From positions 12,090,001-12,154,000 of the forward strand of contig NW_027266319.1 of NCBI RefSeq assembly GCF_022045235.1: a DNA stretch of 64,000 nt, read 5' to 3'. A model generated the notes under the pieces. The model did not search any database and was not told where the DNA came from. It worked only from the letters and a program-made list of their open reading frames with translations. This DNA comes from Haliotis cracherodii (taxonomy: Eukaryota). Positions 1,305-59,467 of the stretch are shown piece by piece. The position numbers and the translations under genes were made by a program. Each line of letters starts with the position of its first letter. The first letter of the stretch is position 1.

Positions 1305-2510
1305 ATGTTTGACTTGCACAGATGTGTCCTTATCCTTCTTCTCTGTCACCTGACAATTGGCTCTGTTTCTTACAAAGAGAAAGATTTTCTGGACAATCTC
1401 ACCTTGAACTATGACCCCAAGATCCGTCCCGTGTTAGATGGTTCCAATACGATGGTGGGTATCACAATGGGATTGTCCACAATTTTATCTCTGGATGAAA
1501 AACAGGAAGTGCTCAGCTTTAAAGCATGGGTTTTAATGACATGGAAGGACCAACTTTTGGTGTGGAACATGACAGATGGCATTCCCGATACAGTGGCTAT
1601 ACCCTTGGTTGATGTATGGTCACCAACCATTATGAATCTTAACTCTGTGACAAACTTGAGGTATTTGAAAGATAATACGGATACTGTGCTTGTCTTTCGG
1701 GATGGAACAGTTATGTATTCCTACACAGGTAGGTTTGACATTGGATGCAAGGTGAATATCCAACAGTTTCCTTTTGATCCTCAGTCATGTACTTTTCACT
1801 TGCAAACATTCTATGCCCCTGTAACTAAGGAATATCTTCAAGTACAAGACAAGCATTTAAATCTAGAAACATATAAGGAAAGCGGAGAATTTCACCTTCT
1901 CAGTGCATCAATGGCACTACGGGAATACAAGACTCTCGGTGTGAGCAGTGACTGGATTGAAGTGACCTTAGTCCTGCAGAGACGAACTATGTTCTACATC
2001 CTAAACAACATCCTGCCTGTTGTGTTCCTGTCCTTTCTCAACACCTTCGCCTTCCTGTTGCCCGAGGAGAGCGGAGAGAAGATATCCTTGTGTGTCTCCA
2101 TCCTGTTGTCATATGCCATGTTCCTCACCCTCATCAACTCCTACCTACCAGCAAACTCCGACCACCTGTGTTTCTTTAGTGTCTATGTCACCCTGCTCGT
2201 GTTAATCAGTACGCTCACGTGCCTTGTCACAATCTTCATGTTCGTACTTAACACTCGTCTTCAAAGGGGCAAAGTTTGTCCAAGATGGCTGCCACTAGCT
2301 TGGGGATCAGACAGCAAAGTTGGGACCACTGAACCACGGGTTGAGATTGAAGACGTGGCTCCAAACCAATCAGATGATAAGGAGAAAGCAAACAAGACGA
2401 CAGACATGAAGGATTTGATAATGACCAGGTGTAACAAGGTAGCATTTGGGACTTTCTTCACACTCACAATTCTCATTAACCTGATATATTTCATCAGCGT
2501 ATCTCTATGA
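1305..2510 (+). CDS. Atypical nAChR-like Cys-loop ligand-gated ion channel subunit, subtype A (copy A1), single exon
   Basis: Uninterrupted ORF; the track starts at TTG 1224 and the first ATG is 1305. It has a signal peptide MFDLHRCVLILLLCHLTIGS, NYDPKIRPV, WKDQLLVW, Cys-loop CKVNIQQFPFDPQSC (C-x13-C), pre-M1 RR, LPEESGEK+M2, M3 and a C-terminal M4. No loop-C Cys-Cys. Confidence 0.93.
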   Translation: MFDLHRCVLILLLCHLTIGSVSYKEKDFLDNLTLNYDPKIRPVLDGSNTMVGITMGLSTILSLDEKQEVLSFKAWVLMTWKDQLLVWNMTDGIPDTVAIPLVDVWSPTIMNLNSVTNLRYLKDNTDTVLVFRDGTVMYSYTGRFDIGCKVNIQQFPFDPQSCTFHLQTFYAPVTKEYLQVQDKHLNLETYKESGEFHLLSASMALREYKTLGVSSDWIEVTLVLQRRTMFYILNNILPVVFLSFLNTFAFLLPEESGEKISLCVSILLSYAMFLTLINSYLPANSDHLCFFSVYVTLLVLISTLTCLVTIFMFVLNTRLQRGKVCPRWLPLAWGSDSKVGTTEPRVEIEDVAPNQSDDKEKANKTTDMKDLIMTRCNKVAFGTFFTLTILINLIYFISVSL

Positions 2511-2972: not shown

Positions 2973-4199
2973 TACTCTCCAAAAAAAGAAACGCAAAATT
3001 GATAGTTTGGGTCATAAAAGCAAAATAAGCGGACCAAGAGGGGCAAAATGAAGATGTTTAATGTGTTTAGTGTCAGTGACAAATTTCCTAGATCAAAATG
3101 ATCATAACAAGGACATGCAAACCATTAGTCGTGAAACACGTACGATTCGGAAAAACGCACCCAGTGCATTAATAAAAGGGCCATGGAGCTGCACGTCCTG
3201 CAAGTGCAGCAGCACTATTAAAATGCAGGATTATTTTTTGCCTAGCATCTGCGTCAGTCGTACAGTGACACTTTTACAACATGCCAAGATTAACAGAAGT
3301 GCAAAGAAACAACGTCTTTGGTGCAGGCAGGGGAATCCAGATCAGTTGCAGCCAGGGTTTTCAATGAACAAGGCTATGAGATCGGTTTTAACAACATGGG
3401 TCAACACGTGATCGGCCAAGGTCGGGACGACCAAGAGTAACCACCCCCGCTCAAGATCGTTACATCTGACTGCGCTAAAGGACGACCACAGCGACCTCAA
3501 CTGCATCCCAAATACCCGGACTGCGCAGAATCTCCGACCAGACCGTACGGTACCGTTTAAGAGCAGCAGGTCTACGAGCAAGACGTCCTGTTCGACGTGT
3601 CATATTCAGTCGACACCACTGTCAACAACGACTGCATTGGTGTCGTCAACACACGATATGGCCTCAACTGCAATGGAGAGATGTCTGGTTCAGTGACGAA
3701 TCAAGATTTCTCCACCGTCGAGGGGATGGAAGAGCACGGGTCTATAGACGTCGGGGAGAACGTTACGCCGGAAGCTGCGTACAGGAAGTGGACAGGTTTG
3801 GTGGGGGTAGCGTCATAATGTGGGCAGAATTCTCTCATCATGGCAGGACATGTTTGGTCCATAGCCAGGGCTACACAACAACAACGTTTATGTTCTCCCC
3901 TGGCCCTCCTGATCCCCGGATTTGAACCCGATAGAGCACCTGTGGGATGAATTGGATAGACGGCTATGCCGACTTCAACAACAACCCTAGACGTTGCAGC
4001 AGTTAGCTTTAGCGTTGCAGGCCGAGTTGGCTACCATCGCCCAGGATGTGATTCGCATACTCGTCTCTTCCATGGGCAGGAGATGTCAGGCCGCTATCGA
4101 TTCCAACCGGGGACATACACGTTATTGAAGGTAGTTGACCTTCACCCTGGACATTTCCTGTACCGATAACTGAGATGACTACAATCACGAAGTGTTCTC
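2973..4199 (+). mobile_element. Degenerate Tc1/mariner transposon, family A (transposase pseudogene)
   Basis: TA followed by a TIR-like tactctccaaaaaaagaaacgcaa. Frameshifted MPRLTEVQRN (3281), WFSDESRF, PDLNPIEHLWDELDRR and GHTRY*. No right TIR seen. Confidence 0.85.
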
Positions 4200-4465
4200 G
4201 ACCCGTGAAGATCCGGGCTAGAATAGGTCTTCAGCAACCCTTGCTTGACGTAAAAGGTGACTGTGCTTGTCGTAAAAGGCGACTAACGGGATCGGGTGGT
4301 CGGGCTCGATGACTCGGTTGATGCATGTCATCGATCCCAAAGGCGTGGATGGATGCTCGTGATATTAATCACTGGATTGTCTGTTCCAGACTCGATTATT
4401 TACAGACCGCCGTCATATAGTTGGAATATTGCTGAGTGCGGCGTTAAACAACAAACCAACCAACC
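4200..4465 (+). mobile_element. SINE-like family 1, full length with a duplicated head hairpin (co-duplicated at 22,809, 33,594, 42,998 and 60,695)
   Basis: 10-bp TSD aagtgttctc (4,190-4,199 / 4,466-4,475); (AACC)n tail. Confidence 0.88.
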
Positions 4466-5242: not shown

Positions 5243-5451
5243 TTTTTGTTTGTTTGTTTGTTTGTCTGTTGTTTAACGCCACACTCAGCAATATTCCAGC
5301 TAAATGACGGCGGTCTGTAAATAATCGAGTCTGGACCAGACAATCCAGTTTATTGACATCATGAGCATCGATCCACGCAATTAGGATACGATGACATGCA
5401 TCAAACAAGACAGTGAGCCTGACCACCCAATCCCGTTAGTCTCCTCTTACA
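5243..5451 (-). mobile_element. SINE-like family 1, 5'-truncated (also ~27,446, ~34,668, ~44,055 and 61,738)
   Basis: Reverse complement of the family 1 body with an (AAAC)n tail. Confidence 0.8.
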
Positions 5452-8592: not shown

Positions 8593-9813
8593 ATGATGTT
8601 TGATTTCTGCAGATGTTTCTTTATCCTTCTTCTCTGTCACCTGACAATTGGCTCTGTTTCATATAAAGAGAAAGAATTCCTGGCCAATCTCACCTTGAAC
8701 TATGACCCCAAGATCCGCCCCGTATTAGATGGTTCCAAGACGATTGTGTATGTCAGTTTGGGATTGTCCACAATATTATCTCTGGATGAAAAACAGGAAG
8801 TGCTCAGTTTTAAAGCATGGGTTATAATGGTCTGGCAGGACCAGCTTTTGGTGTGGGACATGACAGACGGCATTCCCGATACAGTGGCTATGCCCTTGGT
8901 GGATGTATGGTCACCAACCATAATGAATCTTGACTCTGTGACAGACCTGAGGTATCTTTATGATGAAACGGATTCTGTGCTTGTCAATAAGGATGGTACA
9001 GTTATATATTCCTACACAGGTAGGTTTGACATAGGATGCAAGGTGAATATACAACAGTTTCCTTTCGATCGTCAGTCATGCACTTTTCACTTGCAAACAT
9101 TCTATGCCCCTGTAACTAAGGAATATCTTCAGGTAGCAAACACGTATTTAAATCTGGAAAAATACAACCAAAACGGAGAATTTCACCTTCTCAGTGCATC
9201 AATAGCGTTGCAGAAATTCAAGATTTACAATGCCAGTAATGAATGGATAGAAGTGACCCTGGTCCTACAGAGACGACCTATGTTCTACATCCTCAACAAT
9301 ATCCTGCCCGTTGTGTTCCTGTCCTTTCTCAACACCTTTGCCTTCCTGCTGCCCGAGGAAAGTGGTGAGAAGATGTCCCTGTGTGTCTCCATCCTGTTGT
9401 CATATGCCATGTTCCTCACACTCATCAACTCCTACCTACCAGCAAACTCCGACCACCTGTGTTTCTTCAGTGTCTATGTCACCCTGCTCGTGTTAATCAG
9501 CACGCTCACGTGCCTTGTCACAATCTTCATGCTGATATTACACACTCATCTTCAAAGGGGCATGGCTAGTCCAAGATGGCTGCCAATTGCTTGGGGATCA
9601 GACAGCAAAGTTGGGACGACTGAACCACGGGTTAAGAATGACGATGTAGCTCCATACCAATCAGATGTGAAAGACAAAGACAAAGACAAAGCAAACAAGA
9701 AGTTAGACATGAAGGATGCGATAATCACCAAATGTAACAAGGTGGCATTTGGAACGTTCTTCACACTCACAATTCTTGTTAATCTGATATTTTTCATCTG
9801 CGTCTCTCTTTGA
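8593..9813 (+). CDS. Atypical nAChR-like Cys-loop subunit, subtype B (copy B1), single exon
   Basis: Same architecture; Cys-loop CKVNIQQFPFDRQSC; loop C IALQKFKIYNASNEW. The track starts at TTG 8503 and the first in-frame ATG is 8593. Confidence 0.93.
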   Translation: MMFDFCRCFFILLLCHLTIGSVSYKEKEFLANLTLNYDPKIRPVLDGSKTIVYVSLGLSTILSLDEKQEVLSFKAWVIMVWQDQLLVWDMTDGIPDTVAMPLVDVWSPTIMNLDSVTDLRYLYDETDSVLVNKDGTVIYSYTGRFDIGCKVNIQQFPFDRQSCTFHLQTFYAPVTKEYLQVANTYLNLEKYNQNGEFHLLSASIALQKFKIYNASNEWIEVTLVLQRRPMFYILNNILPVVFLSFLNTFAFLLPEESGEKMSLCVSILLSYAMFLTLINSYLPANSDHLCFFSVYVTLLVLISTLTCLVTIFMLILHTHLQRGMASPRWLPIAWGSDSKVGTTEPRVKNDDVAPYQSDVKDKDKDKANKKLDMKDAIITKCNKVAFGTFFTLTILVNLIFFICVSL

Positions 9814-12825: not shown

Positions 12826-14370
12826 TACTCACACGCAAAAGAAACGCAAGTCAAGTATGCAGTATACATGTTATTTATTTTCAACAGTAAAGACAAGAAA
12901 TACTATGAGGGCAAGATTGACAAAAATTTGACTGAAGACAGTTTAATGGATTAAAAGACAGATGACATAATTGGGTTTTTTCAAATGTTAAGGGCTTACA
13001 CAGTTTCGGGTCAATACCCAAAACGTCAGTAAAAACATGGTGTGACCACCATTAGCATTGATCACTGCCACACATCTCCTGTACATTGAGTGGATCAGAC
13101 GATTTGTGAAGGCCCTAGGGATCCTCCTGCACACATCCAGAGCAGCTGTGCGTAGTTCATCGGCAGTTGTAGGGACTGGGCGCATATTGTGCAGATGCCT
13201 TTGAACCTCATCCCAAAAGTGTTCCATGGGGTTCAGATGAGGGCTGAGGGCTGGTCACAGTAGGACACGGATGTTGTGTTTTTGCAGAAAGGTCATGGTA
13301 GCTCTGGCAAAATGGGGACGAGCGTTGTCCTGCTGGAAAATGTGTTGTTGATGTTGTGCAAAAAGTGGAACAACGTGGGGTCTGATCACTTGGTCGATAT
13401 ACCGCTGAGCAGTGACGCCGTGTCCCCGACCTTGACCAACATTCAGAAGTCACATGGGTCCAAGTCTCGCATTAAGTCTAATTCCTGCCCATATCATGAC
13501 GCTAGGTCCACCCCATTTATCCCTTTCCACAACGTTTCTCTCAGGGAAACGATCACCTCAACGCCGCCAAATTCTGACTCTTCCGTCTGCATGGGAGACA
13601 CAAAAGCGATTTTCATCAGAGAAAATGACACGCCTCCACTCACGATGACGCCAATTGTGATGACCCTGTGCCCACTGAAGTCGTGCTTGTCGATGCCGTG
13701 GTTGGAGAACAGGACGACGTGCTGGTCGGCGACATCTGAGGTTGTTGGAACGGATACGTCGGATCACAGTGTCCCGGCTAATGTGTCGATTATGTGTTCC
13801 TATGGTCTGTCGAGCACTTTCACTTGCAGCTAGGAACGGATGACGCTGGTGTTGACGGGTAATCTGCCGATCATGTCGAGGTGTGGTGACCCTAGGACGA
13901 CCGCTCCGAGGAAGGTCATCTGTGGTCTGTGTAGCATTGTATCGATGCAGGAGACGGTAAATTGTGGGTATGTTAACGTTGAAATGACGGGCAACATCTT
14001 CGACAGACTCTCCAGCTTCCAAACGTCCGATAGCCTGGTTTTTCTGAATTTGAGTAAGGCGTGGCATTGTTGACCAAGGAGTGGTTGGTCCAAGAATCGG
14101 CAACAGTTCTATACCCAATACAGTTCGTGACAGTTCGTGCATTTCCGATTTCGCGAGAAATGGGTGCATGATACCCACATATTCATTGAAATGGTGCGTT
14201 TTGGAGATTCGTTTTTTATGTTGCGTTTTTACTCGGGGCTTCCAAAATGCAACCAAAAATATTGATAACACCATCAGGCTTCACTACATGCTAAAACTCG
14301 TATCAATTTATGGTTCCGTGTTTGTTACCTATTAGCTTAAAGCAACTTGCGTTTCTTTTGCGTGTGAGTA
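12826..14370 (-). mobile_element. Tc1/mariner transposon, family B, with both TIRs; transposase disrupted
   Basis: Perfect 26-bp TIRs (tactcacacgcaaaagaaacgcaagt / acttgcgtttcttttgcgtgtgagta) flanked by TA. MPRLTQIQKNQAIG HTH, RSGRPR, VIFSDENRF, QQDNARPH and EHFWD motifs; stop after IWRR. Confidence 0.93.
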
Positions 14371-17177: not shown

Positions 17178-19428
17178 TGTATACAATTTTGCAGAAAATA
17201 CAAACCTCATAAAGACCCTGATTTGGTTTTAGAAAGCACTCCTATTAAAGGTGTAAAAGAGGTTCTTGGGTATTATTGTTTATCTCCATTTAACCTTTTT
17301 ACCACACATAAAACATTTGAAAAATAAATGCCTGAAGGCACTTGACCTTCTGAAAGTCGTTTCAAGTTCAAAGTGTACAGGGCACTCACTTATACGCTCT
17401 AAACTGGATTATGGCTTCATCATCTATGGGGGACTCTGTAAAAGTAATTTAAAAGTATTAGATAGTATTCATCAGGCTTTGCCTCGGAGCCTTCAGAACA
17501 TTCCCTCTTAATAGCCTGTATGTGGAAGCTGATGACCCATCGCTAAAAACAACGTTGCATTAAATCATCTTTACAGTATATTTCTAAGCTGCATTCTGAT
17601 CATTCTAATCCAGCCTACGAATGTGTTTTTAATCCTCCATATAAAGAACAAAAATACATCTCTTACTTCACCCCTAGGAATCAGAATACAATCTCATATT
17701 TCTGCTTCTCAAATTAATCTTGAAAATATAGCCCCAGCCAAACTCCTGTCTTCACCACCATGGCAGTTGGTAAAGCCAGTGGTGGATACAACATTAATTA
17801 AACTAAAGAAATCTGATACAAATCAACTAATTTATCAACAACAATACAATGAATTACGAAGCACATATGATGCTTACAAATCTATATTTACAGATGGATC
17901 CAAGGATGGTGACGCAGTTGCCAGTGCCACCTTCATTGGATCCAGGACTATTTCGTCAAGACTACCGGATAATTGTTCCATTTTTACAGCTGAATCACAT
18001 ACTATATCAACAACACTAGAGTACATTTGTAAACAATCGAAACATAAACAATTTATTATAGTTTCAGATTCTTTATCCTGTCTTCAGACAATACAAAATC
18101 AGTCTTGCAAACATCCACTTTTAATCAAAATCCTTGAATTATAAAATGATCTTGCTACTGGCCAATACGACATCGTCTTTCGTTGGTTACCCAGCCATGT
18201 TGGAGTCATTGGTAACACAATGATCGATGCGTCTGCAAAAGCACCTCTTTACACATCCGTGACACCACTTTTAATTCCATACAGTGATTATAAACCTGTG
18301 ATCAGATGCTACATCCGAGATCTTATGCAACAGAAATGGGACACCCAAGTAGGTATCAACAAATTACATGAAATTAAACCAAATATCGGTTACACCTACT
18401 TGGGTTGTCAGTCCAGACTTGAAGAGGTAATTTTACGACTATGTCGTATTGGCTATAGTAGATATACTCACGAATATTTATTGAAAGGTGCAGATCGTCC
18501 ATTTTGTATCCCTTGTGATGAGAGAAAATCACGGTCAAGCATGTCCTGCTTGACTGTATTGATTTTGCCATCACAAGGGATAACTATTTCACATCATCAT
18601 CTCTCAAAGATCTTTTTAATAATATTACTTCTCTTTTAATTATTGGGTTTTTAAAAGAAATAGAATTGTATAATAATTTTTGATAATGTCTTGTATAAAA
18701 TAAATGATCTTTTAAAATTGGTAGAATGAATTTATATCTGAGTTTGTTACTGACTGTATCCTCAAAAGGGGGTTGACGTAGTGAAAAATAATTGTCCCCC
18801 TGAGAGGATATCGTAAGTCCATGTCATTCAAAGAATATTTCTGCTTATTACTCCTTTAAACGTAGAATATTTGTAATTTTATTTGTTGCTAACTTTGCGT
18901 ACAATCGCCAGGTGCTGAACGAATGATGTAAATCCTGCTGGGTTCCATGCAGGTTGCAAAGGTACTGTAAGTCCCCATGGTCCCCCCGACCCGTGAAGAT
19001 CCGGGGTAGAATAGGTCTTCAGCAACCCATGCTTGCCGTAAAAGGCGACTAACGGGATCGGGTGGTCAGGCTCGCTGACTTGGTTGATGCATGTTATCGA
19101 TCCCAATTGCGTGGATCGATGTTCATGATGTAAATCACTGGATTGTCTGGTCCAGACTCGATTATTTACAGATCGCCGTCATATAGCTGGAATATTGCTG
19201 AGTGCGGCGTAAAACAACAACCAAACCAAACCAAAACCCCATGGTCCTCAGAATGGTGGTCTACCTTCAGTTGCTGGCGATCTAGAGCCCGTTTTTATCT
19301 TGTATTGTAACGTATAGTGCCATCCTTTTTTTATGATTCCATACTAGTTTGATATCTTTTTCTGTGAGAAGTCTAGTTATTTTACTGTCATTTGTTGGCA
19401 GGTTTTTCAAATGTTCACTCACTCACTC
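17178..19428 (+). mobile_element. 5'-truncated, degenerate non-LTR retrotransposon (I-group/Nimb-like; RT thumb, RNase H, CCHC)
   Basis: LTFLPHIKHLKNKCLKALDLLKVV and SLIRSKLDYG (RT C-terminus); IFTDGSK, SIFTAE, SDSLS, WLPSHVG (RNase H); CIPCDE zinc knuckle. Frameshifts and a stop at 18,142-18,144. Confidence 0.85.
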
Positions 19429-19916: not shown

Positions 19917-21122
19917 ATGTTTGACTTGCACAGATGTGTCCTTATCCTTCTTCTCTGTCACCTGACAATTGGCTCTGTTTCTTACAAAGAGAAAGATTTT
20001 CTGGACAATCTCACCTTGAACTATGACCCCAAGATCCGTCCCGTGTTAGATGGTTCCAATACGATGGTGGGTATCACAATGGGATTGTCCACAATTTTAT
20101 CTCTGGATGAAAAACAGGAAGTGCTCAGCTTTAAAGCATGGGTTTTAATGACATGGAAGGACCAACTTTTGGTGTGGAACATGACAGATGGCATTCCCGA
20201 TACAGTGGCTATACCCTTGGTTGATGTATGGTCACCAACCATTATGAATCTTAACTCTGTGACAAACTTGAGGTATTTGAAAGATAATACGGATACTGTG
20301 CTTGTCTTTCGGGATGGAACAGTTATGTATTCCTACACAGGTAGGTTTGACATTGGATGCAAGGTGAATATCCAACAGTTTCCTTTTGATCCTCAGTCAT
20401 GTACTTTTCACTTGCAAACATTCTATGCCCCTGTAACTAAGGAATATCTTCAAGTACAAGACAGGCATTTAAATCTAGAAACATATAAGGAAAGCGGAGA
20501 ATTTCACCTTCTCAGTGCATCAATGGCACTACGGGAATACAAGACTCTCGGTGTGAGCAGTGACTGGATTGAAGTGACCTTAGTCCTGCAGAGACGAACT
20601 ATGTTCTACATCCTAAACAACATCCTGCCTGTTGTGTTCCTGTCTTTTCTCAACACCTTTGCCTTCCTGTTGCCCGAGGAGAGCGGAGAGAAGATATCCT
20701 TGTGTGTCTCCATCCTGTTGTCATATGCCATGTTCCTCACCCTCATCAACTCCTACCTACCAGCAAACTCCGACCACCTGTGTTTCTTTAGTGTCTATGT
20801 CACCCTGCTCGTGTTAATCAGTACGCTCACGTGCCTTGTCACAATCTTCATGTTCGTACTTAACACTCGTCTTCAAAGGGGCAAAGTTTGTCCAAGATGG
20901 CTGCCACTAGCTTGGGGATCAGACAGCAAAGTTGGGACCACTGAACCACGGGTTGAGATTGAAGGCGTGGCTCCAAACCAATCAGATGATAAGGAGAAAG
21001 CAAACAAGACGACAGACATGAAGGATTTGATAATGACCAGGTGTAACAAGGTAGCATTTGGGACTTTCTTCACACTCACAATTCTCATTAACCTGATATA
21101 TTTCATCAGCGTATCTCTATGA
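19917..21122 (+). CDS. Atypical nAChR-like Cys-loop subunit, subtype A (copy A2)
   Basis: Near-identical to A1 (offset 18,612 bp); intact ORF; FPFDPQ variant. Track start is TTG 19836. Confidence 0.93.
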   Translation: MFDLHRCVLILLLCHLTIGSVSYKEKDFLDNLTLNYDPKIRPVLDGSNTMVGITMGLSTILSLDEKQEVLSFKAWVLMTWKDQLLVWNMTDGIPDTVAIPLVDVWSPTIMNLNSVTNLRYLKDNTDTVLVFRDGTVMYSYTGRFDIGCKVNIQQFPFDPQSCTFHLQTFYAPVTKEYLQVQDRHLNLETYKESGEFHLLSASMALREYKTLGVSSDWIEVTLVLQRRTMFYILNNILPVVFLSFLNTFAFLLPEESGEKISLCVSILLSYAMFLTLINSYLPANSDHLCFFSVYVTLLVLISTLTCLVTIFMFVLNTRLQRGKVCPRWLPLAWGSDSKVGTTEPRVEIEGVAPNQSDDKEKANKTTDMKDLIMTRCNKVAFGTFFTLTILINLIYFISVSL

Positions 21123-23119: not shown

Positions 23120-24243
23120 GATGCTACATCCGAGATCTTATGCAACAGAAATGGGACACCCAAGTAGGTATCAACAAATTACATGAAATTAAACCAAATA
23201 TCGGTTACACCTACTTGGGTTGTCAGTCCAGACTTGAAGAGGTAATTTTACGACTATGTCGTATTGGCTATAGTAGATATACTCACGAATATTTATTGAA
23301 AGGTGCAGATCGTCCATTTTGTATCCCTTGTGATGAGAGAAAATCACGGTCAAGCATGTCCTGCTTGACTGTATTGATTTTGCCATCACAAGGGATAACT
23401 ATTTCACATCATCATCTCTCAAAGATCTTTTTAATAATATTACTTCTCTTTTAATTATTGGGTTTTTAAAAGAAATAGAATTGTATAATAATTTTTGATA
23501 ATGTCTTGTATAAAATAAATGATCTTTTAAAATTGGTAGAATGAATTTATATCTGAGTTTGTTACTGACTGTATCCTCAAAAGGGGGTTGACGTAGTGAA
23601 AAATAATTGTCCCCCTGAGAGGATATCGTAAGTCCATGTCATTCAAAGAATATTTCTGCTTATTACTCCTTTAAACGTAGAATATTTGTAATTTTATTTG
23701 TTGCTAACTTTGCGTACAATCGCCAGGTGCTGAACGAATGATGTAAATCCTGCTGGGTTCCATGCAGGTTGCAAAGGTACTGTAAGTCCCCATGGTCCCC
23801 CCGACCCGTGAAGATCCGGGGTAGAATAGGTCTTCAGCAACCCATGCTTGCCGTAAAAGGCGACTAACGGGATCGGGTGGTCAGGCTCGCTGACTTGGTT
23901 GATGCATGTTATCGATCCCAATTGCGTGGATCGATGTTCATGATGTAAATCACTGGATTGTCTGGTCCAGACTCGATTATTTACAGACCGCCGTCATATA
24001 GCTGGAATATTGCTGAGTGCGGCGTAAAACAACAAACAAACCAAACCAAAACCCCATGGTCCTCAGAATGGTGGTCTACCTTCAGTTGCTGGCGATCTAG
24101 AGCCCGTTTTTATCTTGTATTGTAACGTATAGTGCCATCCTTTTTTTATGATTCCATACTAGTTTGATATCTTTTTCTGTGAGAAGTCTAGTTATTTTAC
24201 TGTCATTTGTTGGCAGGTTTTTCAAATGTTCACTCACTCACTC
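23120..24243 (+). mobile_element. 3' fragment of the same LINE, truncated by an array rearrangement
   Basis: Begins abruptly at gatgctacatccgagatc and matches 18,305 onward. Confidence 0.8.
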
Positions 24244-24731: not shown

Positions 24732-25937
24732 ATGTTTGACTTGCACAGATGTGTCCTTATCCTTCTTCTCTGTCACCTGACAATTGGCTCTGTTTCTTAC
24801 AAAGAGAAAGATTTTCTGGACAATCTCACCTTGAACTATGACCCCAAGATCCGTCCCGTGTTAGATGGTTCCAATACGACGGTGGGTATCACAATGGGAT
24901 TGTCCACAATTTTATCTCTGGATGAAAAACAGGAAGTGCTCAGCTTTAAAGCATGGGTTTTAATGACATGGAAGGACCAACTTTTGGTGTGGAACATGAC
25001 AGATGGCATTCCCGATACAGTGGCTATACCCTTGGTTGATGTATGGTCACCAACCATTATGAATCTTAACTCTGTGACAAACTTGAGGTATTTGAAAGAT
25101 AATACGGATACTGTGCTTGTCTTTCGGGATGGAACAGTTATGTATTCCTACACAGGTAGGTTTGACATTGGATGCAAGGTGAATATCCAACAGTTTCCTT
25201 TTGATCGTCAGTCATGTACTTTTCACTTGCAAACATTCTATGCCCCTGTAACTAAGGAATATCTTCAAGTACAAGACAAGCATTTAAATCTAGAAACATA
25301 TAAGGAAAGCGGAGAATTTCACCTTCTCAGTGCATCAATGGCACTACGGGAATACAAGACTCTCGGTGTGAGCAGTGACTGGATTGAAGTGACCTTAGTC
25401 CTGAAGAGACGAACTATGTTCTACATCCTCAACAACATCCTGCCTCTTGTGTTCCTTTCCTTTCTCAACACATTCGCCTCCCTGTTGCCCGAGGAGAGCG
25501 GAGAGAAGATATCCATGTGTGTCTCCATCCTGTTGTCATATGCCATGTTCCTCACCCTCATCAACTCCTACCTACCAGCGAACTCCGACCACCTGTGTTT
25601 CTTTAGTGTCTATGTCACCCTGCTCGTGTTAATCAGTACGCTCACGTGCCTTGTCACAATCTTCATGTTCGTACTTCACACTCGTCTTCAAAGGGGCAAA
25701 GTTTGTCCAAGATGGCTGCCACTAGCTTGGGGATCAGACAGCAAAGTTGGGACCACTGAACCACGGGTTGAGATTGAAGGCGTGGCTCCAAACCAATCAG
25801 ATGTTAAGGAGAAAGCAAACAAGACGACAGACATGAAGGATTTGATAATGACCAGGTGTAACAAGGCAGCATTTGGGACGTTCTTCACACTCACAATTCT
25901 CATTAACCTGATATATTTCATCAGCGTATCTCTATGA
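24732..25937 (+). CDS. Atypical nAChR-like Cys-loop subunit, subtype A (copy A3)
   Basis: Intact A-type ORF with several private substitutions (NTTVG, LPLV, FAS, ISM) and FPFDRQ. Track start is TTG 24651. Confidence 0.93.
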   Translation: MFDLHRCVLILLLCHLTIGSVSYKEKDFLDNLTLNYDPKIRPVLDGSNTTVGITMGLSTILSLDEKQEVLSFKAWVLMTWKDQLLVWNMTDGIPDTVAIPLVDVWSPTIMNLNSVTNLRYLKDNTDTVLVFRDGTVMYSYTGRFDIGCKVNIQQFPFDRQSCTFHLQTFYAPVTKEYLQVQDKHLNLETYKESGEFHLLSASMALREYKTLGVSSDWIEVTLVLKRRTMFYILNNILPLVFLSFLNTFASLLPEESGEKISMCVSILLSYAMFLTLINSYLPANSDHLCFFSVYVTLLVLISTLTCLVTIFMFVLHTRLQRGKVCPRWLPLAWGSDSKVGTTEPRVEIEGVAPNQSDVKEKANKTTDMKDLIMTRCNKAAFGTFFTLTILINLIYFISVSL

Positions 25938-30713: not shown

Positions 30714-31919
30714 ATGTTTGATTTCTGCAGATGTTTCTTTATCCTTCTTCTCTGTCACCTGACAATTGGCTCTGTTTCTTACAAAGAGAAGGAATTCCTG
30801 GCCAATCTCACCTTGAACTATGACCCCAAGATCCGCCCCGTATTAGATGGTTCCAACACGATTGTGTATGTCAGTTTGGGATTGTCCACAATATTATCTC
30901 TGGATGAAAAACAGGAAGTGCTCAGTTTTAAAGCATGGGTTATAATGGTCTGGCAGGACCAACTTTTGGTGTGGAACATGACAGACGGCATTCCTGATAC
31001 AGTGGCTATGCCCTTGGTGGATGTATGGTCACCTACCATAATGAATCTTGACTCTGTGACAGACCTGAGGTATCTTTATGATGAAACGGATTCTGTGCTT
31101 GTCAATAACGATGGTACAGTTATATATTCCTACACAGGTAGGTTTGACATAGGATGCAAGGTGAATATACAACAGTTTCCTTTCGATCGTCAGTCATGTA
31201 CTTTTCACTTGCAAACATTCTATGCCCCTGTAACTAAGGAATATCTTCAGGTAGCAAACACGTATTTAAATCTGGAAAAATACAACCAAAACGGAGAATT
31301 TCACCTTCTCAGTTCATCAATAGCATTGCAGAAATTCAAGATTTACAATGCCAGTAATGAATGGATAGAAGTGACCTTAGTCCTGAAGAGACGAACTATG
31401 TTCTACATCCTCAACAACATCCTGCCCGTTGTGTTCCTGTCCTTTCTCAACACCTTCGTCTTCCTGTTGCCCGAGGAAAGTGGTGAGAAGATGTCCCTGT
31501 GTGTCTCCATTCTGTTGTCATATACCATGTTCCTCACCCTAATCAACTCCTACTTACCAGCGAACTCCGACCACCTGTGTTTCTTCAGTGTCTATGTCAC
31601 ACTGCTTGTGTTGATCAGCACGCTCACGTGCCTCGTAACAATCTTCATGTTCGTACTTCACACTCGTCTTCAAAGGGGCAAAGTTTGTCCAAGATGGCTG
31701 CCACGAGCTTGGGGATCAGACAGCAAAGTTTGGACAACTGAACCACGGGTTGAGATTGAAGGCGTGGCTCCAAACCAATCAGATGATAAGGAGAAAGCAA
31801 ACAAGACGACAGACATGAAGGATTTGATAATGACCAGGTGTAACAAGGTAGCATTTGGGACTTTCTTCACACTCACAATTCTCATTAACCTGATATATTT
31901 CATCAGCGTATCTCTATGA
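30714..31919 (+). CDS. Chimeric nAChR-like subunit: B-type extracellular domain with A-type intracellular loop and M4
   Basis: B residues through GEKMSL, then A residues from FMFVLHTRLQRGKVCPRW to YFISVSL. B-type upstream flank and A-type downstream flank. Track start is TTG 30624. Confidence 0.92.
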   Translation: MFDFCRCFFILLLCHLTIGSVSYKEKEFLANLTLNYDPKIRPVLDGSNTIVYVSLGLSTILSLDEKQEVLSFKAWVIMVWQDQLLVWNMTDGIPDTVAMPLVDVWSPTIMNLDSVTDLRYLYDETDSVLVNNDGTVIYSYTGRFDIGCKVNIQQFPFDRQSCTFHLQTFYAPVTKEYLQVANTYLNLEKYNQNGEFHLLSSSIALQKFKIYNASNEWIEVTLVLKRRTMFYILNNILPVVFLSFLNTFVFLLPEESGEKMSLCVSILLSYTMFLTLINSYLPANSDHLCFFSVYVTLLVLISTLTCLVTIFMFVLHTRLQRGKVCPRWLPRAWGSDSKVWTTEPRVEIEGVAPNQSDDKEKANKTTDMKDLIMTRCNKVAFGTFFTLTILINLIYFISVSL

Positions 31920-50805: not shown

Positions 50806-52245
50806 TACTCACACGCAAAAGAAACGCAAGTCAAGTATGCAGTATACATGTTATTTATTTTCAACAGTAAAGACAAGAAATACTAATAGGGCAAGATTGA
50901 AAAAATTTGACTGAAGACAGTTTAATGGATTAAAAGACATAATCGGGTTTTTCTTAAAATGTTAAGGGCTTACACAGTTTCGGGTCAATACCCAAAACGT
51001 CAGTCAATACCTGGTGTGACCACCATTAGCATTGATCACTGCCACACATAACCTGTACATTGAGTGGATCAGACGATTTGTGAAGGCCCTAGGGATCCTC
51101 CTGCATATATCCAGAGCAGCTGTGCGTAGTTCATCGGCAGTTGTAGGGACTGGGCGCATATTGTGCAGACGACTTTGAACCTCATCCCAACAGTGTTCCA
51201 TGGGGTTCAGATCAGGGCTGAGGGTTGGCCACGGTAGAACACGGATGTTGTGTTTTTGCAGAAAGGTCATGGTAGCTCTGGCAACATGGGGACGAGCGTT
51301 GTCCTGCTGGAAAATGTGTTGTTGATGTTGTGCAAAAAGTGGAACAACCTGGGGTCTGATCACTTGGTCGATATACCACTGAGCAGTGACGCCGTGGCCC
51401 CGACCTTGACCAACATTCAGAAGTCACATGGGTCCAAGTCTCGCATTAAGTCCAATCCCTGCCCATATCATGACGCTAGGTCCACCCCATGGATCCCTTT
51501 CCACAACGTTTCTCTCAGCGAAACGATCACCTCGACGCCGCCAAATTCTGACTCTTCCGTCTGCATGGGAGACACAAAAGCGACTTTCATCAGAGAAGAT
51601 GACACGCCTGGAGAACAGGACGACGTGCTGGTCGGCGACATCTGAGGTTGTTGGAACGGAGACGTCGGATCACAGTGTCCCGGCTAATGTGTCGATTATG
51701 TGTTCCTATGGTCTGTCGAGCACTTTCACTTGCAGCTAGGAACGGATGTCGCTAGTGTTGACGGGTAATCTGCCGATCATGTCGAGGTGTAGTGACCCTA
51801 GGACCACTGCTCCGAGGAAGGTCATCTGTGGCCTGTGTAGCATTGTATCGATGCAGGAGACGGTAAATTGTGGGTATGTTAACGTTGAAACGTTCCAAAC
51901 GTCCGATAGCCTGGTTTCTCTGAATTTGAGTTAGGCGTGGCACTGTTGACCAAGGAGTGGTTGGTCCAAGAATCGGCAACAGTTCTATACCCAATACAGT
52001 TCGTGACAGTTCGTGCATTTTCGATTTCGCGAGAAATGGGTGCATGATAGCCACATATTCATTGAAATGGTGCGTTTTGGAGATTCGTTTTTTATGTTGC
52101 GTTTTTACTCGGGGCTTCCAAAATGCAACCAAAATATTGATAACACCATCAGGCTTCACTACATGCTAAAACTCGTATCAATTTATGGTTCCGTGTTTGT
52201 TACCTATTAGCTTAAAGCAACTTGCGTTTCTTTTGCGTGTGAGTA
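50806..52245 (-). mobile_element. Tc1 family B copy with both TIRs; internal deletions
   Basis: Same TIRs and TA flanks; FQQDNARPH...SPDLNPMEHCWD...GGHTRY in ORF 51,004-51,363. Confidence 0.93.
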
Positions 52246-55060
52246 TACAATAATATGTTTTCATCTGTACAATTATATTTCTTGTTTTCTTTTTCTGTCG
52301 ATCTGCTGAATTCAATGCCTGTTTATGGCTGGAAATGTGAGTGAGTAAAAATTGTACATCGCATCGGCAATATTGCCGCCATATCGTGATGAGAACAAGG
52401 TAGTTACACAAATTAAAATGAGTCAGTGAGTTACAATTTTAAGTCATATCGGCAATATTTTAGCCAAATCGTGACTATCACGGGTTAAACAAAATCAAAA
52501 CATTGAGACTTTTATAAAATCCTGCTAACGAAGGACAGTTAAATAACTAGACATATCACAGAAAACGATTTGAAATAAAATGGACAGCGCTGTACATAGA
52601 AATACGTGATAAAACGGACTATAGATCGCCAGCAATTGAAGGTAGATCACCATACTGGGAACCATGGGGACTTACAGTACTTTTGCTACCTGCATGGACC
52701 CCACCAGCAACACCACATCGTCTTCAAACAGGTATCATTAATGGCAGTTCTCCAATTCTTAATAAAGTCGTCTATATATTCACGAACCGTGAATGTATAT
52801 AAATAATACTCAAATGCTAGAAGTGATTTATATTCTTGATACAGACATACTAGTAGTTTATTTGATTTACCAAAAAATGGAATGCAGCTCTTAATCTATG
52901 TACAAAGTGTATTTAAAATAATATTATCACCAATTTCTCGTGTGATTCATTCAAGGTCATAACTTAAATAATCTTTTTACATTTGAAACCCACGTTGCGC
53001 GATTACATTGATCTAAAGATCCACATAGCAGATAACATTATATGTCTGTTATTAGACACTGACAACAATTTCAACCAACAATCTCTTGTGATAGTCAGCA
53101 AAACAACCGTATCTACCACATTCACCAAGTACAGCCCAATGTTTACCTACACCTTTAGCATACTTGAAAACTTTTATAAGAAAACACTCGATATATTCTA
53201 GAATATCACCGCTTCACAAGTATGCAATACAATTTATTTAATATGTGTATCAACATTTTGTAACAGATGGTGAAACATTCTGTAACTTGAAGTGTAACTG
53301 TTTAACATGACCTCCAACTTAATTAGCTTTAAGAATAAGACCATATTTATAAAACCTATTTGAGGACAGCAACTCAAGATAATTATAGTACGTAGATCTT
53401 TTTACATGTTCATTTCCACACATCCATTTTGCACTGCTTCCAAGTGTACCACCATTCCGAAAAGTAAGATTTCTGTCTTATCTACATTAATTTGTAAGCC
53501 CCATCTAATCCTAATTTCTTTGAGAACATTGCATTTCTATATTATACCAATAACTGTCATCAAAGGGTCTTCTGCATATAACAATAACAATATATCTAGT
53601 TTGTTTCGGTTTGTTTGTTGTTTAACGCCGCACTCAGCAATATTACAGCTATATGACGGCGGTCTGTAAATAATCGAGTCTGTACCAGACAATCCAGTGA
53701 TTGAAATCAAGAGCATCGATCCACGCAATTGGGATACGATGACATTCATCAACCAATTCAGCGAGCCTGACCACCCGTTCCTGTTAGTCGCCTTTCACGG
53801 CAAGCATAGGTTGCTGAAGACCTATTCTACCCAGGATCTTCACAACTTTTGAAGATACTTTTGAGATACAATCGAGCATGCTCTTTCTACTAAGATTTCA
53901 AAGATCGTCATACAACTCTTGCTCAGAAGTTGTTTTACCAAGGTTACACCATTCAAGGCCTGAAAAAGCTTTAAAAAAAATTGGTATGGTGGACGCAAAT
54001 TTAACGCATAGATGAAAAAATATGTCCGATGCAATTCCTTATTTTCATTTGTAGCAAATCCTCGCGTTTTGTTTTTCCGGTGAACAATTGACTTGCCTTT
54101 TCAGGTGTTTTTGACGGTTGCCAGCGACAACAGTATGCTTACCCTTTCGCGAACAACTGGTATCCTCACAAATTCATAGTGATTCATGAACACATGTACA
54201 CCACACACTAGCAGTCGGATTCTCTCACAGTCGACTATGTTTTTGACAGAATTTTTTCTTATGAATATGGAAAGGATTTTGTCGCTTTCATAAAATACAA
54301 TTTAATCTCCAAAATGAAAAATAACCTTTCCTCCTGTGACATGCAGTTCAAAGAGGCTACATGGTCACTTAATGAGTTTCACCAAGCTAAAAAGAAAACA
54401 GTCACATGATAAACACCTTTAACACCTAATCCAGAACAAGCCAATATTTAGTTTTACTAAACCAGAATAAGTTTCAGCAGGCGATAAAAACTACAAGTTG
54501 AAATACCTCACGAATGTACTAGACCTGAATGTCAACATAGTTGACATGACAACCAAACTGCAAAATAACTGCAAAACACTACCACCAACACAACATCATT
54601 TTTATATTGCTTCAGACCTTTATACTTTATATTTCAGTTTCACGAAACAATTTAGTGAGTTGTGACGCTACTTAAACAGCATTTGTGTTATATAACTGTG
54701 TCAGCTTAATATGGGGAAAATGCCTGCTGTGGTAATGGTCGAAGACGTTTACCACTTTGGTGAAATCCACGAACATGCTGATGCTGACAGACCTAGAAAC
54801 CTAATGCGTGATTCAAACCCACAATCATATATTTCTGGTGTGTCCATGGAAAGCAACTCGACACAGCAAATACCGGCGCCTTAGACGACTGTGTCCCTCA
54901 GGCCACCACGAAACAAACAACCCCATTACCCAATGACACCAATAAGTAAGGATGTTTCTGATAATACAACGAAACCTTTAATACTTGATGCAAAATCGCT
55001 CTGCTATACAATCACTGATGATTAAAACGCTGTGATCTGATACTGACGACGATATATAAT

Positions 55061-57311
55061 TGTATACAATTTTGCAGAAAATACAAACCTCATAAAGACC
55101 CTGATTTGGTTTTAGAAAGCACTCCTATTAAAGGTGTAAAAGAGGTTCTTGGGTATTATTGTTTATCTCCATTTAACCTTTTTACCACACATAAAACATT
55201 TGAAAAATAAATGCCTGAAGGCACTTGACCTTCTGAAAGTCGTTTCAAGTTCAAAGTGTACAGGGCACTCACTTATACGCTCTAAACTGGATTATGGCTT
55301 CATCATCTATGGGGGACTCTGTAAAAGTAATTTAAAAGTATTAGATAGTATTCATCAGGCTTTGCCTCGGAGCCTTCAGAACATTCCCTCTTAATAGCCT
55401 GTATGTGGAAGCTGATGACCCATCGCTAAAAACAACGTTGCATTAAATCATCTTTACAGTATATTTCTAAACTGCATTCTGATCATTCTAATCCAGCCTA
55501 CGAATGTGTTTTTAATCCTCCATATAAAGAACAAAAATACATCTCTTACTTCACCCCTAGGAATCAGAATACAATCTCATATTTCTGCTTCTCAAATTAA
55601 TCTTGAAAATATAGCCCCAGCCAAACTCCTGTCTTCACCACCATGGCAGTTGGTAAAGCCAGTAGTGGATACAACATTAATTAAACTAAAGAAATCTGAT
55701 ACAAATCAACTAATTTATCAACAACAATACAATGAATTACGAAGCACATATGATGCTTACAAATCTATATTTACAGATGGATCCAAGGATGGTGACGCAG
55801 TTGCCAGTGCCACCTTCATTGGATCCAGGACTATTTCGTCAAGACTACCGGATAATTGTTCCATTTTTACAGCTGAATCACATACTTTATCAACAACACT
55901 AGAGTACATTTGTAAACAATCGAAACATAAACAATTTATTATAGTTTCAGATTCTTTATCCTGTCTTCAGACAATACAAAATCAGTCTTGCAAACATCCA
56001 CTTTTAATCGAAATCCTTGAATTATATAATGATCTTGCTACTGGCCAATACGACATCGTCTTTCGTTGGTTACCCAGCCATGTTGGAGTCATTGGTAACA
56101 CAATGATCGATGCGTCTGCAAAAGCACCTCTTTACACATCCGTGACACCACTTTTAATTCCATACAGTGATTATAAACCTGTGATCAGATGCTACATCCG
56201 AGATCTTATGCAACAGAAATGGGACACCCAAGTAGGTATCAACAAATTACATGAAATTAAACCAAATATCGGTTACACCTACTTGGGTTGTCAGTCCAGA
56301 CTTGAAGAGGTAATTTTACGACTATGTCGTATTGGCTATAGTAGATATACTCACGAATATTTATTGAAAGGTGCAGATCGTCCATTTTGTATCCCTTGTG
56401 ATGAGAGAAAATCACGGTCAAGCATGTCCTGCTTGACTGTATTGATTTTGCCATCACAAGGGATAACTATTTCACATCATCATCTCTCAAAGATCTTTTT
56501 AATAATATTACTTCTCTTTTAATTATTGGGTTTTTAAAAGAAATAGAATTGTATAATAATTTTTGATAATGTCTTGTATAAAATAAATGATCTTTTAAAA
56601 TTGGTAGAATGAATTTATATCTGAGTTTGTTACTGACTGTATCCTCAAAAGGGGGTTGACGTAGTGAAAAATAATTGTCCCCCTGAGAGGATATCGTAAG
56701 TCCATGTCATTCAAAGAATATTTCTGCTTATTACTCCTTTAAACGTAGAATATTTGTAATTTTATTTGTTGCTAACTTTGCGTACAATCGCCAGGTGCTG
56801 AACGAATGATGTAAATCCTGCTGGGTTCCATGCAGGTTGCAAAGGTACTGTAAGTCCCCATGGTCCCCCCGACCCGTGAAGATCCGGGGTAGAATAGGTC
56901 TTCAGCAACCCATGCTTGCCGTAAAAGGCGACTAACGGGATCGGGTGGTCAGGCTCGCTGACTTGGTTGATGCATGTTATCGATCCCAATTGCGTGGATC
57001 GATGTTCATGATGTAAATCACTGGATTGTCTGGTCCAGACTCGATTATTTACAGACCGCCGTCATATAGCTGGAATATTGCTGAGTGCGGCGTAAAACAA
57101 CAACCAAACCAAACCAAAACCCCATGGTCCTCAGAATGGTGGTCTACCTTCAGTTGCTGGCGATCTAGAGCCCGTTTTTATCTTGTATTGTAACGTATAG
57201 TGCCATCCTTTTTTTATGATTCCATACTAGTTTGATATCTTTTTCTGTGAGAAGTCTAGTTATTTTACTGTCATTTGTTGGCAGGTTTTTCAAATGTTCA
57301 CTCACTCACTC
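55061..57311 (+). mobile_element. Second copy of the 5'-truncated RNase H LINE
   Basis: Nearly identical to 17,178-19,428. The RNase H frame 55,506-56,522 is open (TAT instead of TAA). Confidence 0.85.
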
Positions 57312-57799
57312 CTAACATATACGATTAAACATGGTTATTAGAAGTAGTTTTGTAAAAGCTAAATTCATTATTGCTTTAGCAAATAACAATGATGGTTCAA
57401 CATACACTCACATGAATATTCAAAGCGTTAACAAATGTGTTCCATGCAATAAGATGACATAATTATAACATAACGTGATTGTATTCATGTCTTACAATCG
57501 TACAAACCACTCTGCTTTAAGCACAGAAGTTTTGTTGCTTTTATTTACATATACAATGTCCGAACATCGATAGTGTAATGACATTCAAGTGTTATGTTGG
57601 GGCGCAGCATCAGATTGACAAAGCTATTCAGATGGTGATTGTGAAATTCAGATAATGACTAAACGGTTTCTCTTGGATACGAACAATACCTTTGTAATAC
57701 TATACATCATTTCTAATATTGAGTCTCAGCGTGTGGCCGTTTCCATTGCAGTTGTGCTGTTTCTTATTCGACGTTAACCACACTGACATAGTCTTGGAA

Positions 57800-59005
57800 A
57801 TGTTTGACTTGCACAGATGTGTCCTTATCCTTCTTCTCTGTCACCTGACAATTGGCTCTGTTTCTTACAAAGAGAAAGATTTTCTGGACAATCTCACCTT
57901 GAACTATGACCCCAAGATCCGTCCCGTGTTAGATGGTTCCAATACGATGGTGGGTATCACAATGGGATTGTCCACAATTTTATCTCTGGATGAAAAACAG
58001 GAAGTGCTCAGCTTTAAAGCATGGGTTTTAATGACATGGAAGGACCAACTTTTGGTGTGGAACATGACAGATGGCATTCCCGATACAGTGGCTATACCCT
58101 TGGTTGATGTATGGTCACCAACCATTATGAATCTTAACTCTGTGACAAACTTGAGGTATTTGAAAGATAATACGGATACTGTGCTTGTCTTTCGGGATGG
58201 AACAGTTATGTATTCCTACACAGGTAGATTTGACATTGGATGCAAGGTGAATATCCAACAGTTTCCTTTTGATCGTCAGTCATGTACTTTTCACTTGCAA
58301 ACATTCTATGCCCCTGTAACTAAGGAATATCTTCAAGTACAAGACAAGCATTTAAATCTAGAAACATATAAGGAAAGCGGAGAATTTCACCTTCTCAGTG
58401 CATCAATGGCACTACGGGAATACAAGACTCTCGGTGTGAGCAGTGACTGGATTGAAGTGACCTTAGTCCTGAAGAGACGAACTATGTTCTACATCCTAAA
58501 CAACATCCTGCCTGTTGTGTTCCTGTCCTTTCTCAACACCTTCGCCTTCCTGTTGCCCGAGGAGAGCGGAGAGAAGATATCCTTGTGTGTCTCCATCCTG
58601 TTGTCATATGCCATGTTCCTCACCCTCATCAACTCCTACCTACCAGCAAACTCCGACCACCTGTGTTTCTTTAGTGTCTATGTCAGCCTGCTCGTGTTAA
58701 TCAGTACGCTCACGTGCCTTGTCACAATCTTCATGTTCGTACTTAACACTCGTCTTCAAAGGGGCAAAGTTTGTCCAAGATGGCTGCCACTAGCTTGGGG
58801 ATCAGACAGCAAAGTTGGGACCACTGAACCACGGGTTGAGATTGAAGGCGTGGCTCCAAACCAATCAGATGATAAGGAGAAAGCAAACAAGACGACAGAC
58901 ATGAAGGATTTGATAATGACCAGGTGTAACAAGGTAGCATTTGGGACTTTCTTCACACTCACAATTCTCATTAACCTGATATATTTCATCAGCGTATCTC
59001 TATGA
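57800..59005 (+). CDS. Atypical nAChR-like Cys-loop subunit, subtype A (copy A4)
   Basis: Intact A-type ORF at offset 56,495 from A1; FPFDRQ. Track start is TTG 57719. Confidence 0.93.
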   Translation: MFDLHRCVLILLLCHLTIGSVSYKEKDFLDNLTLNYDPKIRPVLDGSNTMVGITMGLSTILSLDEKQEVLSFKAWVLMTWKDQLLVWNMTDGIPDTVAIPLVDVWSPTIMNLNSVTNLRYLKDNTDTVLVFRDGTVMYSYTGRFDIGCKVNIQQFPFDRQSCTFHLQTFYAPVTKEYLQVQDKHLNLETYKESGEFHLLSASMALREYKTLGVSSDWIEVTLVLKRRTMFYILNNILPVVFLSFLNTFAFLLPEESGEKISLCVSILLSYAMFLTLINSYLPANSDHLCFFSVYVSLLVLISTLTCLVTIFMFVLNTRLQRGKVCPRWLPLAWGSDSKVGTTEPRVEIEGVAPNQSDDKEKANKTTDMKDLIMTRCNKVAFGTFFTLTILINLIYFISVSL

Positions 59006-59467
59006 TGAACATCATTCACTGATATGGCTTAATATGAACTGTGAGGGCTAAGAAAACTAACTTTTACTACTTTTACTTTTAGCTTGTAGGCTCCTGGAGA
59101 CAACCGGGAAAAAGAATATATTCGATTGGTTGGTAGATGTATATTTTGACATATCTTGTGTGTGTTTTGAGGCATCAGTCACAATATAATAGGAGATGCC
59201 ATATTGTGACCTTTTGGTGTGAACAATTGACTTGCGTTTGATATCTTTAGAATGGAAAGAGTTTTTGCCACGTTTATTTGCATTCGTTCATCCTAACTTC
59301 ACAGTAGGGAAGGCTGGCATGATATTCGGATGATGATTATTATAATCCTACATTCAGCCGGGGAATAACACACAGTATAACATACGAGGTGAGTATTACT
59401 GATCAGGTGGGGATAGAGACCAATGACGAACTTCCATTTGAATTGTATTCAGTCAGTTTATAAATTA

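Follow-up and report, generated by a model that had tools for sequence, protein, structure and literature searches.

Introduction

An array of nicotinic acetylcholine receptor (nAChR)-like genes in the abalone Haliotis cracherodii raises the question of what a Cys-loop channel responds to when the aromatic cage for acetylcholine is gone from its subunits. The window analysed here, a whole stretch of 64 kb, carries as assembled eight plus-strand Cys-loop genes, each of them a single open reading frame (ORF) of 400-406 codons and all of them near-copies of one protein. The initial annotation of this DNA held that the cage is dismantled in every copy and suggested that the pocket has been remodelled for another ligand.

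Molluscan nAChR expansions are large, intronless and tandem (Jiao et al. 2019, PMC6896357), and according to the accessible part of that paper only 13 of 132 oyster nAChRs retain all principal acetylcholine sites, while expression of expanded molluscan members has been recorded in gill and in early embryos, and infection elicits a response in some of them. In the accessible text of the MolluscaGenes study (PMC13174522), several clades have substitutions of ligand-binding residues and divergent clades are put forward as candidate gastropod chemoreceptors. Since this proposal is in print, the idea of another ligand is already a published hypothesis for the class, at least as far as the available text goes. 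The sequence lists of both papers could already include or classify the genes described here. Our literature searches, from whose coverage subscription papers and supplements were largely absent, found no title on abalone nAChR-like arrays and no paper combining 'chemotactile receptor' with 'abalone'.

Eight intact genes with two types of ligand domain

None of the eight copies contains an internal stop, and tblastn within the window returned no copy beyond these eight (Table 1). Leaving the UTRs aside, the genes are intronless and lie in tandem on one strand, with eight single ORFs per 64 kb. Copy A1 comprises a hydrophobic N-terminus, which we read from its sequence as a putative signal peptide, a ligand-binding domain, M1-M4 and a short M3-M4 loop; its AlphaFold2 model has four long helices. 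In the two copies that were scanned, the Pfam families Neur_chan_LBD (PF02931, E 2e-35) and Neur_chan_memb (PF02932, E 8e-13) scored above their cut-offs. All eight copies have the Cys-x13-Cys loop (C148-C162) and the -1' Glu of the GEK motif, the PAR motif being absent, and they are predicted from sequence to belong to the cation-selective branch of the Cys-loop superfamily. Positions 13' and 16' of M2 are Met and Thr in every copy and Val and Leu in alpha7; these changes may alter gating or calcium permeability.

Two types of ligand domain can be distinguished, type A in copies A1-A4 and type B in copies B6, M5, B7 and B8. The mosaic copy M5 has an A-type intracellular loop and M4, and also short A-type tracts at codons 222-225. 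The copies sit in segmental duplications (for example, 14017-23108 matches 51893-60992 at 97.9%), and the recent duplications in the window are 98-99% identical.

Table 1. Genes of the array and features of copy A1, in positions of the window
Feature	Position	Strand	Description	Basis
Copy A1	1305..2510	+	Intact single-ORF Cys-loop subunit gene, 401 aa	ORF, Pfam, model
Loop D (A1)	1521..1535	+	KAWVL, with KAWV at 1521-1532; W75 equals alpha7 W55, kept; K73 clade-specific	alpha7 alignment
Loop A (A1)	1617..1646	+	WSPTIMNLNS; D89 replaced by T108, Y93 by L112	alpha7 and multiple alignment
Cys loop (A1)	1746..1790	+	C148-C162, intact, with FPFD	alpha7 alignment
Loop B (A1)	1800..1817	+	LQTFYA; W149 replaced by F169, Y170 adjoining	alpha7 and multiple alignment
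Loop C (A1)	1914..1955	+	ALREYKTLGVSSDW; vicinal Cys absent, Y208 and W217 on the hairpin	alpha7 alignment, A1 model
M2 (A1)	2073..2150	+	Cation-type GEK motif, 9' Leu, 13' Met	alpha7 alignment
Copy B6	8593..9813	+	Intact, B-type ligand domain, N212-A-S sequon at the tip of loop C	ORF
Copy A2	19917..21122	+	Intact	ORF, copy alignment
Copy A3	24732..25937	+	Intact	ORF, copy alignment
Copy M5	30714..31919	+	Intact mosaic, ligand domain B-type and C-terminal part A-type	copy alignment
Copy B7	37956..39167	+	Intact	ORF, copy alignment
Copy B8	46582..47784	+	Intact, identical to database protein P0002	ORF, protein search
Copy A4	57800..59005	+	Intact	ORF, copy alignment

That the copies are pseudogenes was ruled out by the eight intact frames and by a dN/dS of 0.03-0.05 in M1-M3. 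A pure assembly artefact is an unlikely origin for the distinction between A and B, given a dS of about 0.3, and also for the array as such, given that four species have several paralogues per contig. Four of the 11 listed sequencing runs were examined: from each of two that were presumed to be RNA came a single contig (190-206 bases) covering the intracellular loop, and another run yielded no contig; we count this neither for nor against expression.

The acetylcholine cage is lost from every copy

Human alpha7 is the best solved relative by sequence in the PDB (phmmer, E 7e-41). The labels W55, Y93, W149, Y188 and Y195 and the loop names, placed on the phmmer alignment, are those that we take to be conventional for alpha7. 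The loop motifs on which the initial annotation was built recur in all eight copies and had been placed correctly in the first, and its by-eye loop assignments agree with the alignments to human alpha7 and to canonical alpha subunits. A multiple alignment with canonical alpha subunits of fish, frog and fly gives the same replacements as the alpha7 alignment. As had been claimed, loop C is without YxCC (vicinal cysteines in 0/8 copies, Y195 replaced by S/N215), the cation-pi Trp of loop B is replaced by Phe (W149 by F169, 8/8), and loop A has neither the Tyr nor the Asp of WxPD (Y93 replaced by L112 and D89 by T108, again in all eight). Loop C of type B reads IYNASNEW in three copies and IFNASNEW in one, the other four having the A form. 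The cage was regained neither by alignment nor in a model, and misalignment as the reason for its absence was ruled out for W149, Y93, Y195 and the cysteines by the pairwise and multiple alignments and by the hairpin of both models. The statement that only the loop D Trp remains was too strong: F169, Y170, W217 and Y208 (type A) or F208 (type B) are present as well.

None of the eight copies has the loop B Trp149, loop A Tyr93 and loop C Tyr195 of alpha-type nAChRs. They resemble non-alpha subunits in that vicinal cysteines are absent and the loop D Trp is retained; the WxPD motif and loop B Trp of canonical non-alpha subunits are missing. Vertebrate beta subunits usually retain both of these features. 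The contention that the genes go beyond a beta-type subunit holds as far as the comparison with P0146 and P0208 reaches, these being cysteine-less members of the canonical clade that retain WxPD and the loop B Trp.

A principal face whose loops A, B and C are stripped of cage residues, next to a complementary face that keeps W75 (W55) and L129 (L109), is what a non-alpha partner subunit would look like, and it counts against the rebuilt pocket that we favour. The proteins could join a canonical alpha subunit in heteropentamers and supply no more than the pore and the complementary face, and as a result of this role their own principal loops would drift. We consider such a role rather unlikely, since the Pro-Pro of loop E is lost (YSYTGR), W75 is replaced by Cys in P0006 and by Ser in P0012, and canonical nAChRs form a clade of which these genes are not part.

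Loop C is shortened and keeps other aromatic residues

Loop C is two residues shorter than that of alpha7, with 31 steps from F196 to R227 versus 33 from W174 to R207. The AlphaFold2 models of A (residues 21-401, pLDDT 92) and of the B ligand domain (pLDDT 94) both have beta9 at 196-210, beta10 at 213-226 and a two-residue turn at 211-212. The Tyr188 equivalent is Y208 of type A according to HMMER, which opens a two-residue gap at the base of beta9, and T/I210 according to the hairpin register of the models. From the two-residue turn in both models, we infer that the deletion is at the tip of loop C, with T/I210 at the Y188 position; by ungapped counting anchored on F196=W174 and R227=R207, Y/F208 would then be at R186, facing the vacated Y195 position, and W217 would replace D197. 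By alignment, the putative pocket contains aromatics, plus K73 and H165.

It is conceivable that such a pocket is still cholinergic and takes low-affinity acetylcholine, choline or betaine through W75, F169, Y170, Y/F208 and W217. Several aromatics are left, HMMER pairs Y208 with Y188, and nematode choline-gated channels without some of the canonical aromatics are described in the accessible part of 10.1101/2021.10.06.463318. We nevertheless hold a cholinergic ligand to be very unlikely, as none of W149, Y93, Y195, D89 and the vicinal cysteines is left, and two types with strongly unlike loops would be unexpected for a single ligand.

Loss of the cage is ordinary among the relatives

How common the loss is was assessed in an alignment of 103 sequences (two window copies, seven close relatives and 94 single-domain distant relatives), from which fused and partial records were excluded. 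Among the 94 distant relatives, W149 is found in 64, D89 in 48, W55 in 37, Y93 in 7 and the loop C cysteine pair in 5; D89, Y93, W149 and the cysteines are jointly absent from 22, which include pulmonate snail proteins. The surprise that the initial annotation attached to the loss is therefore not borne out: the same loss is frequent in the nearest relatives and has been published for molluscs, and it is ordinary for its class.

In protein searches, the top matches are records of Haliotis cracherodii itself (99% across part of the query), followed by H. rubra, H. asinina and H. rufescens at 52-79%, a single record at 49%, and sequences of other molluscs and of further animals at 24-35%. All named matches above 50% identity are from Haliotis, and since several paralogues lie on one contig in each of four species, the array is genus-wide. 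Among the sequences found, the genes form an abalone-restricted clade whose nearest outside relatives have less than 40% identity. In a quick tree of 55 rows (LG+G4, unrooted and drawn at the midpoint, with long-branch warnings on other rows), three window copies and eight close relatives form one clade of 11 rows with an SH-aLRT of 100. The 10 labelled canonical rows group apart from that clade, in a tree drawn without vertebrate beta subunits and without cephalopod receptors. We have here a lineage-specific expansion with divergent ligand-binding sites, which adds an abalone representative to the molluscan nAChR-like orphans, a known class of expanded and intronless genes.

A and B types differ in the binding loops

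Estimated by the Nei-Gojobori method, dN/dS between A1 and B8 is lowest in M1-M3 (0.03), rises to 0.11 in the ligand domain outside the loops and reaches 0.90 within the binding loops, the loop value ranging over 0.79-0.91 across four pairs. The two low values indicate that the channel is under strong purifying selection, and there is good evidence that it is functional. An excess of dN over dS in the loops, as expected under positive selection, was not significant for A1-B8 (p 0.84). A and B have 61% identity in the binding loops, compared with 94% in the rest of the ligand domain and 98% in M1-M3.

Fixed differences between the A and B ligand domains (n=37) occupy 30 of 77 loop positions versus 7 of 130 others, with a Fisher p-value of 2e-9 that is generous because the loop ranges, which follow conventional definitions, were fixed after the list of A/B differences had been viewed. 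The enrichment holds in each stratum of variability (4/18 vs 0/50, 9/22 vs 3/46 and 17/37 vs 4/31), and a stratified permutation gave p 5e-5, with 16.8 of the 37 expected in loops. Loop C has 10 differences at 15 positions, loop F 8 at 14, loop E 5 at 17, loop G 4 at 7 and loop D 2 at 7. They lie on both faces of the site. A loop dN/dS near 1 would suit the partner-subunit role discussed above; that 19 of the 30 loop differences fall in the complementary loops D, E, F and G speaks against it.

Because the loop dN/dS of 0.9 is not above 1, relaxed constraint on a disused pocket fits these data equally well. Gating might be by protons, metal ions or another non-orthosteric route, or the proteins might serve a non-sensory epithelial or immune role, with loops that vary under relaxed selection and a copy number inflated by unequal crossing-over. 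The recent segmental duplications at 98-99% identity agree with such a history, as do the gill and embryo expression and the infection response of molluscan nAChRs reported in the accessible part of PMC6896357. We nevertheless regard a largely disused pocket as decidedly unlikely, in view of pocket residues that are invariant and specific to the clade and of a loop C whose hairpin length, W217 and sequon have been maintained across four species.

The invariant residues are K73, N111, Y170 and W217, present in all six core clade members and in only 3, 2, 7 and 1, respectively, of the 94 distant relatives; they are suggestive only, because the six core members share recent ancestry. The length of the loop C hairpin is fixed across four species. 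In 17 Haliotis loop C segments from outside the window, W217 occurs in 12 and F/Y208 in 12, and N212 occurs in seven, six of them with an N-glycosylation sequon whose middle residue varies, in four species. Of the segment set, P0015 failed the anchor and P0001 is the window's own, and some segments come from mis-joined gene models. The conservation of W217 and of the loop C sequon also argues against the partner-subunit role.

In the window, the sequon is N-A-S in all four B-type copies (9229-9237 in B6, and equivalents) and in none of the A-type copies, and its presence suggests that loop C of B is probably glycosylated. In toxin-resistant muscle receptors a glycan shields the binding site, and by analogy a glycan at the loop C tip might shield the site here. 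The remodelling of the pocket put forward in the initial annotation thus gains from the clade-specific invariant residues and the loop-centred A/B differences, and falls short in that relaxed constraint fits too. Taken together, the data are suggestive of a pocket that was diversified rather than abandoned.

The membrane region is homogenised across unlike ligand domains

When A1 is compared with P0010 (H. rufescens) and P0013 (H. rubra), M1-M3 is 94-95% identical and the ligand domain 39-40%; in the comparison with P0007, the values are 84% and 68%. Across such Haliotis paralogues, 92-95% in M1-M3 goes with about 40% in the ligand domain. The control consisted of 122 distant pairs whose ligand domains are 35-55% identical, not one of which has 85% or more in M1-M3; it is biased because most rows are representatives of 50%-identity clusters.

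Within the array, A and B are cleanly separated at 74 of the 95 variable sites in codons 1-216 versus 9 of the 44 in codons 217-312, and pairs of sites that are incompatible by the four-gamete criterion number 12/2701 in the ligand domain versus 84/300 in codons 217-312. These counts indicate recombination between copies that is centred on the membrane region and leaves the A and B ligand domains unmixed. The recombining stretch in copy A1 is 1953-2240 of the window, with equivalents in the other seven copies. That the ligand domains stay unmixed despite recombination next to them is a further argument against a largely disused pocket. Higher identity alone could cause the recombination in the membrane region. 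Selection for co-assembly is a possible reading of the pattern. The high conservation of the membrane region would also be in keeping with partner subunits.

Comparison with known receptors

With the expanded lophotrochozoan nAChR-like genes, as far as they are described in the accessible parts of PMC6896357 and PMC13174522, the array shares intronless coding sequences, tandem arrangement, lineage-specific expansion and the GEK motif; substitutions at the principal acetylcholine sites are likewise shared with those in the available text of PMC6896357. What sets the abalone clade apart from the published expansions is a set of pocket residues conserved within it, together with a membrane region that has been homogenised although the ligand domains attached to it differ greatly. 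Human alpha7 has the same fold, Cys loop, W55 and M2 pore signature, but at 26-28% identity the abalone genes are without its D89, Y93, W149, C190-C191 and Y195, and their intracellular loop is much shorter and loop C two residues shorter.

In fold comparison, the A model ranks closest to the muscle nAChR (Z 31.5) and alpha7 (Z 31.4, 26% identity), followed by 5-HT3 (26.9), GluCl (26.2), Alpo4 (8bx5; 25.9, 22% identity), CRT1 (9e6b; 22.5, 23% identity, 285 residues aligned) and CRB1 (8eiz; 21.9, 20% identity). Foldseek also ranks nAChRs first. The chemotactile receptors CRT1 and CRB1 are, like the abalone genes, nAChR-like, without acetylcholine motifs, intronless and expanded, according to the accessible parts of PMC13174522 and PMC10338036. 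Octopus receptors of this kind, cited in the available text of PMC10338036, are without the signature motifs and are activated by terpenes, not by acetylcholine, and the part of 10.1101/2025.03.03.641191 at hand describes positive selection on the ligand-contacting aromatics of CRT1. CRT1 and CRB1 are absent from the best 60 PDB sequence matches and from the 50 matches listed for the B-type ligand-domain model, a profile search for relatives returned no cephalopod record, and the ESM Atlas gave generic Cys-loop clusters only. We found no sign, by sequence or by fold, of a special kinship with chemotactile receptors, and any likeness to them would probably be convergent.

Alpo4, an orphan lophotrochozoan nAChR-like channel of Alvinella, is also without vicinal cysteines; according to the accessible part of PMC10338036, it gave no response to more than 30 compounds. 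Unlike the abalone genes, it still has the Trp of loop B and further key aromatics (PMC10338036, same part). Some of these aromatics are also absent from nematode choline-gated channels, which still use cholinergic ligands (10.1101/2021.10.06.463318, available text). The orphan status of Alpo4, the nematode cholinergic precedents and a fold match to CRT1 and CRB1 that is below the match to alpha7 all count against the reading that we favour.

A candidate family of chemoreceptors

With the cage lost, the pore near-constant and the loops specific to each type, a response to chemicals other than acetylcholine seems likely. We favour, with modest confidence, the reading that these genes encode cation channels opened by something other than acetylcholine, probably an environmental chemical, which would bind in a remodelled pocket at the interface; specificity would differ between A and B. 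In a pentamer of these subunits, the ligand would occupy the customary site between neighbouring subunits. The principal side would contribute F169/Y170, Y/F208 and W217 to the lining of the pocket, the complementary side W75, K73 and variable residues of loops D, E, F and G; over the pocket would lie the shortened loop C, which in B probably carries a glycan. On ligand binding, the conserved pore would open and the cell would be depolarised. Since the membrane region is near-identical, different ligand domains could co-assemble, giving one pore with many sensors, and the A and B types would likely be tuned to different chemicals. By analogy with octopus chemotactile receptors, detection of environmental chemicals is our best guess at the likeliest role.

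A more far-reaching version, which we consider improbable, is that a taste-by-touch array evolved independently in abalones from a retroposed nicotinic gene, with interchangeable ligand domains, a pore module kept uniform by gene conversion, combinatorial co-assembly and the sensing of algal or biofilm chemicals, possibly including the settlement cue of crustose red algae. To our knowledge, the receptor for this cue has never been cloned. Haliotis is farmed, and titles in the reference list of PMC6381176 show that work on the chemistry of its settlement goes back to 1979. A link of the array to abalone larval settlement is possible, as suggested by titles in the same list.

By itself, the loss of the cage adds little, as it is the rule in the large molluscan nAChR-like expansion. 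The array is of interest as a test case for the question, raised in the accessible part of PMC13174522, whether non-cephalopod molluscan genes serve as ionotropic chemoreceptors, and A and B, being naturally matched, lend themselves to ligand screening and loop swaps.

Gene models and neighbouring repeats

The public H. cracherodii gene models of the array (P0001, P0005, P0038, P0214 and P0215) are mis-joined or truncated; in P0001, the membrane region of A1 is fused to parts of B6 and the B6 ligand domain is skipped. No full-length A-type record was among the matches in the protein and profile searches. With the models mis-joined or fragmentary, the full A-type protein is apparently missing from the annotation.

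ORFs that by eye resemble remnants of Tc1/mariner transposase are found at 3479-3925, 13558-14280, 51004-51423 and 59974-60420 and are repeated with the duplicated units. Others, with a resemblance by eye to fragments of RNase H-containing retrotransposons, lie just upstream of three A-type copies (17536-18639, 23122-23454 and 55419-56522). A short interspersed repeat occurs in both orientations between genes, at 380-620, 4200-4460 and 5270-5450.
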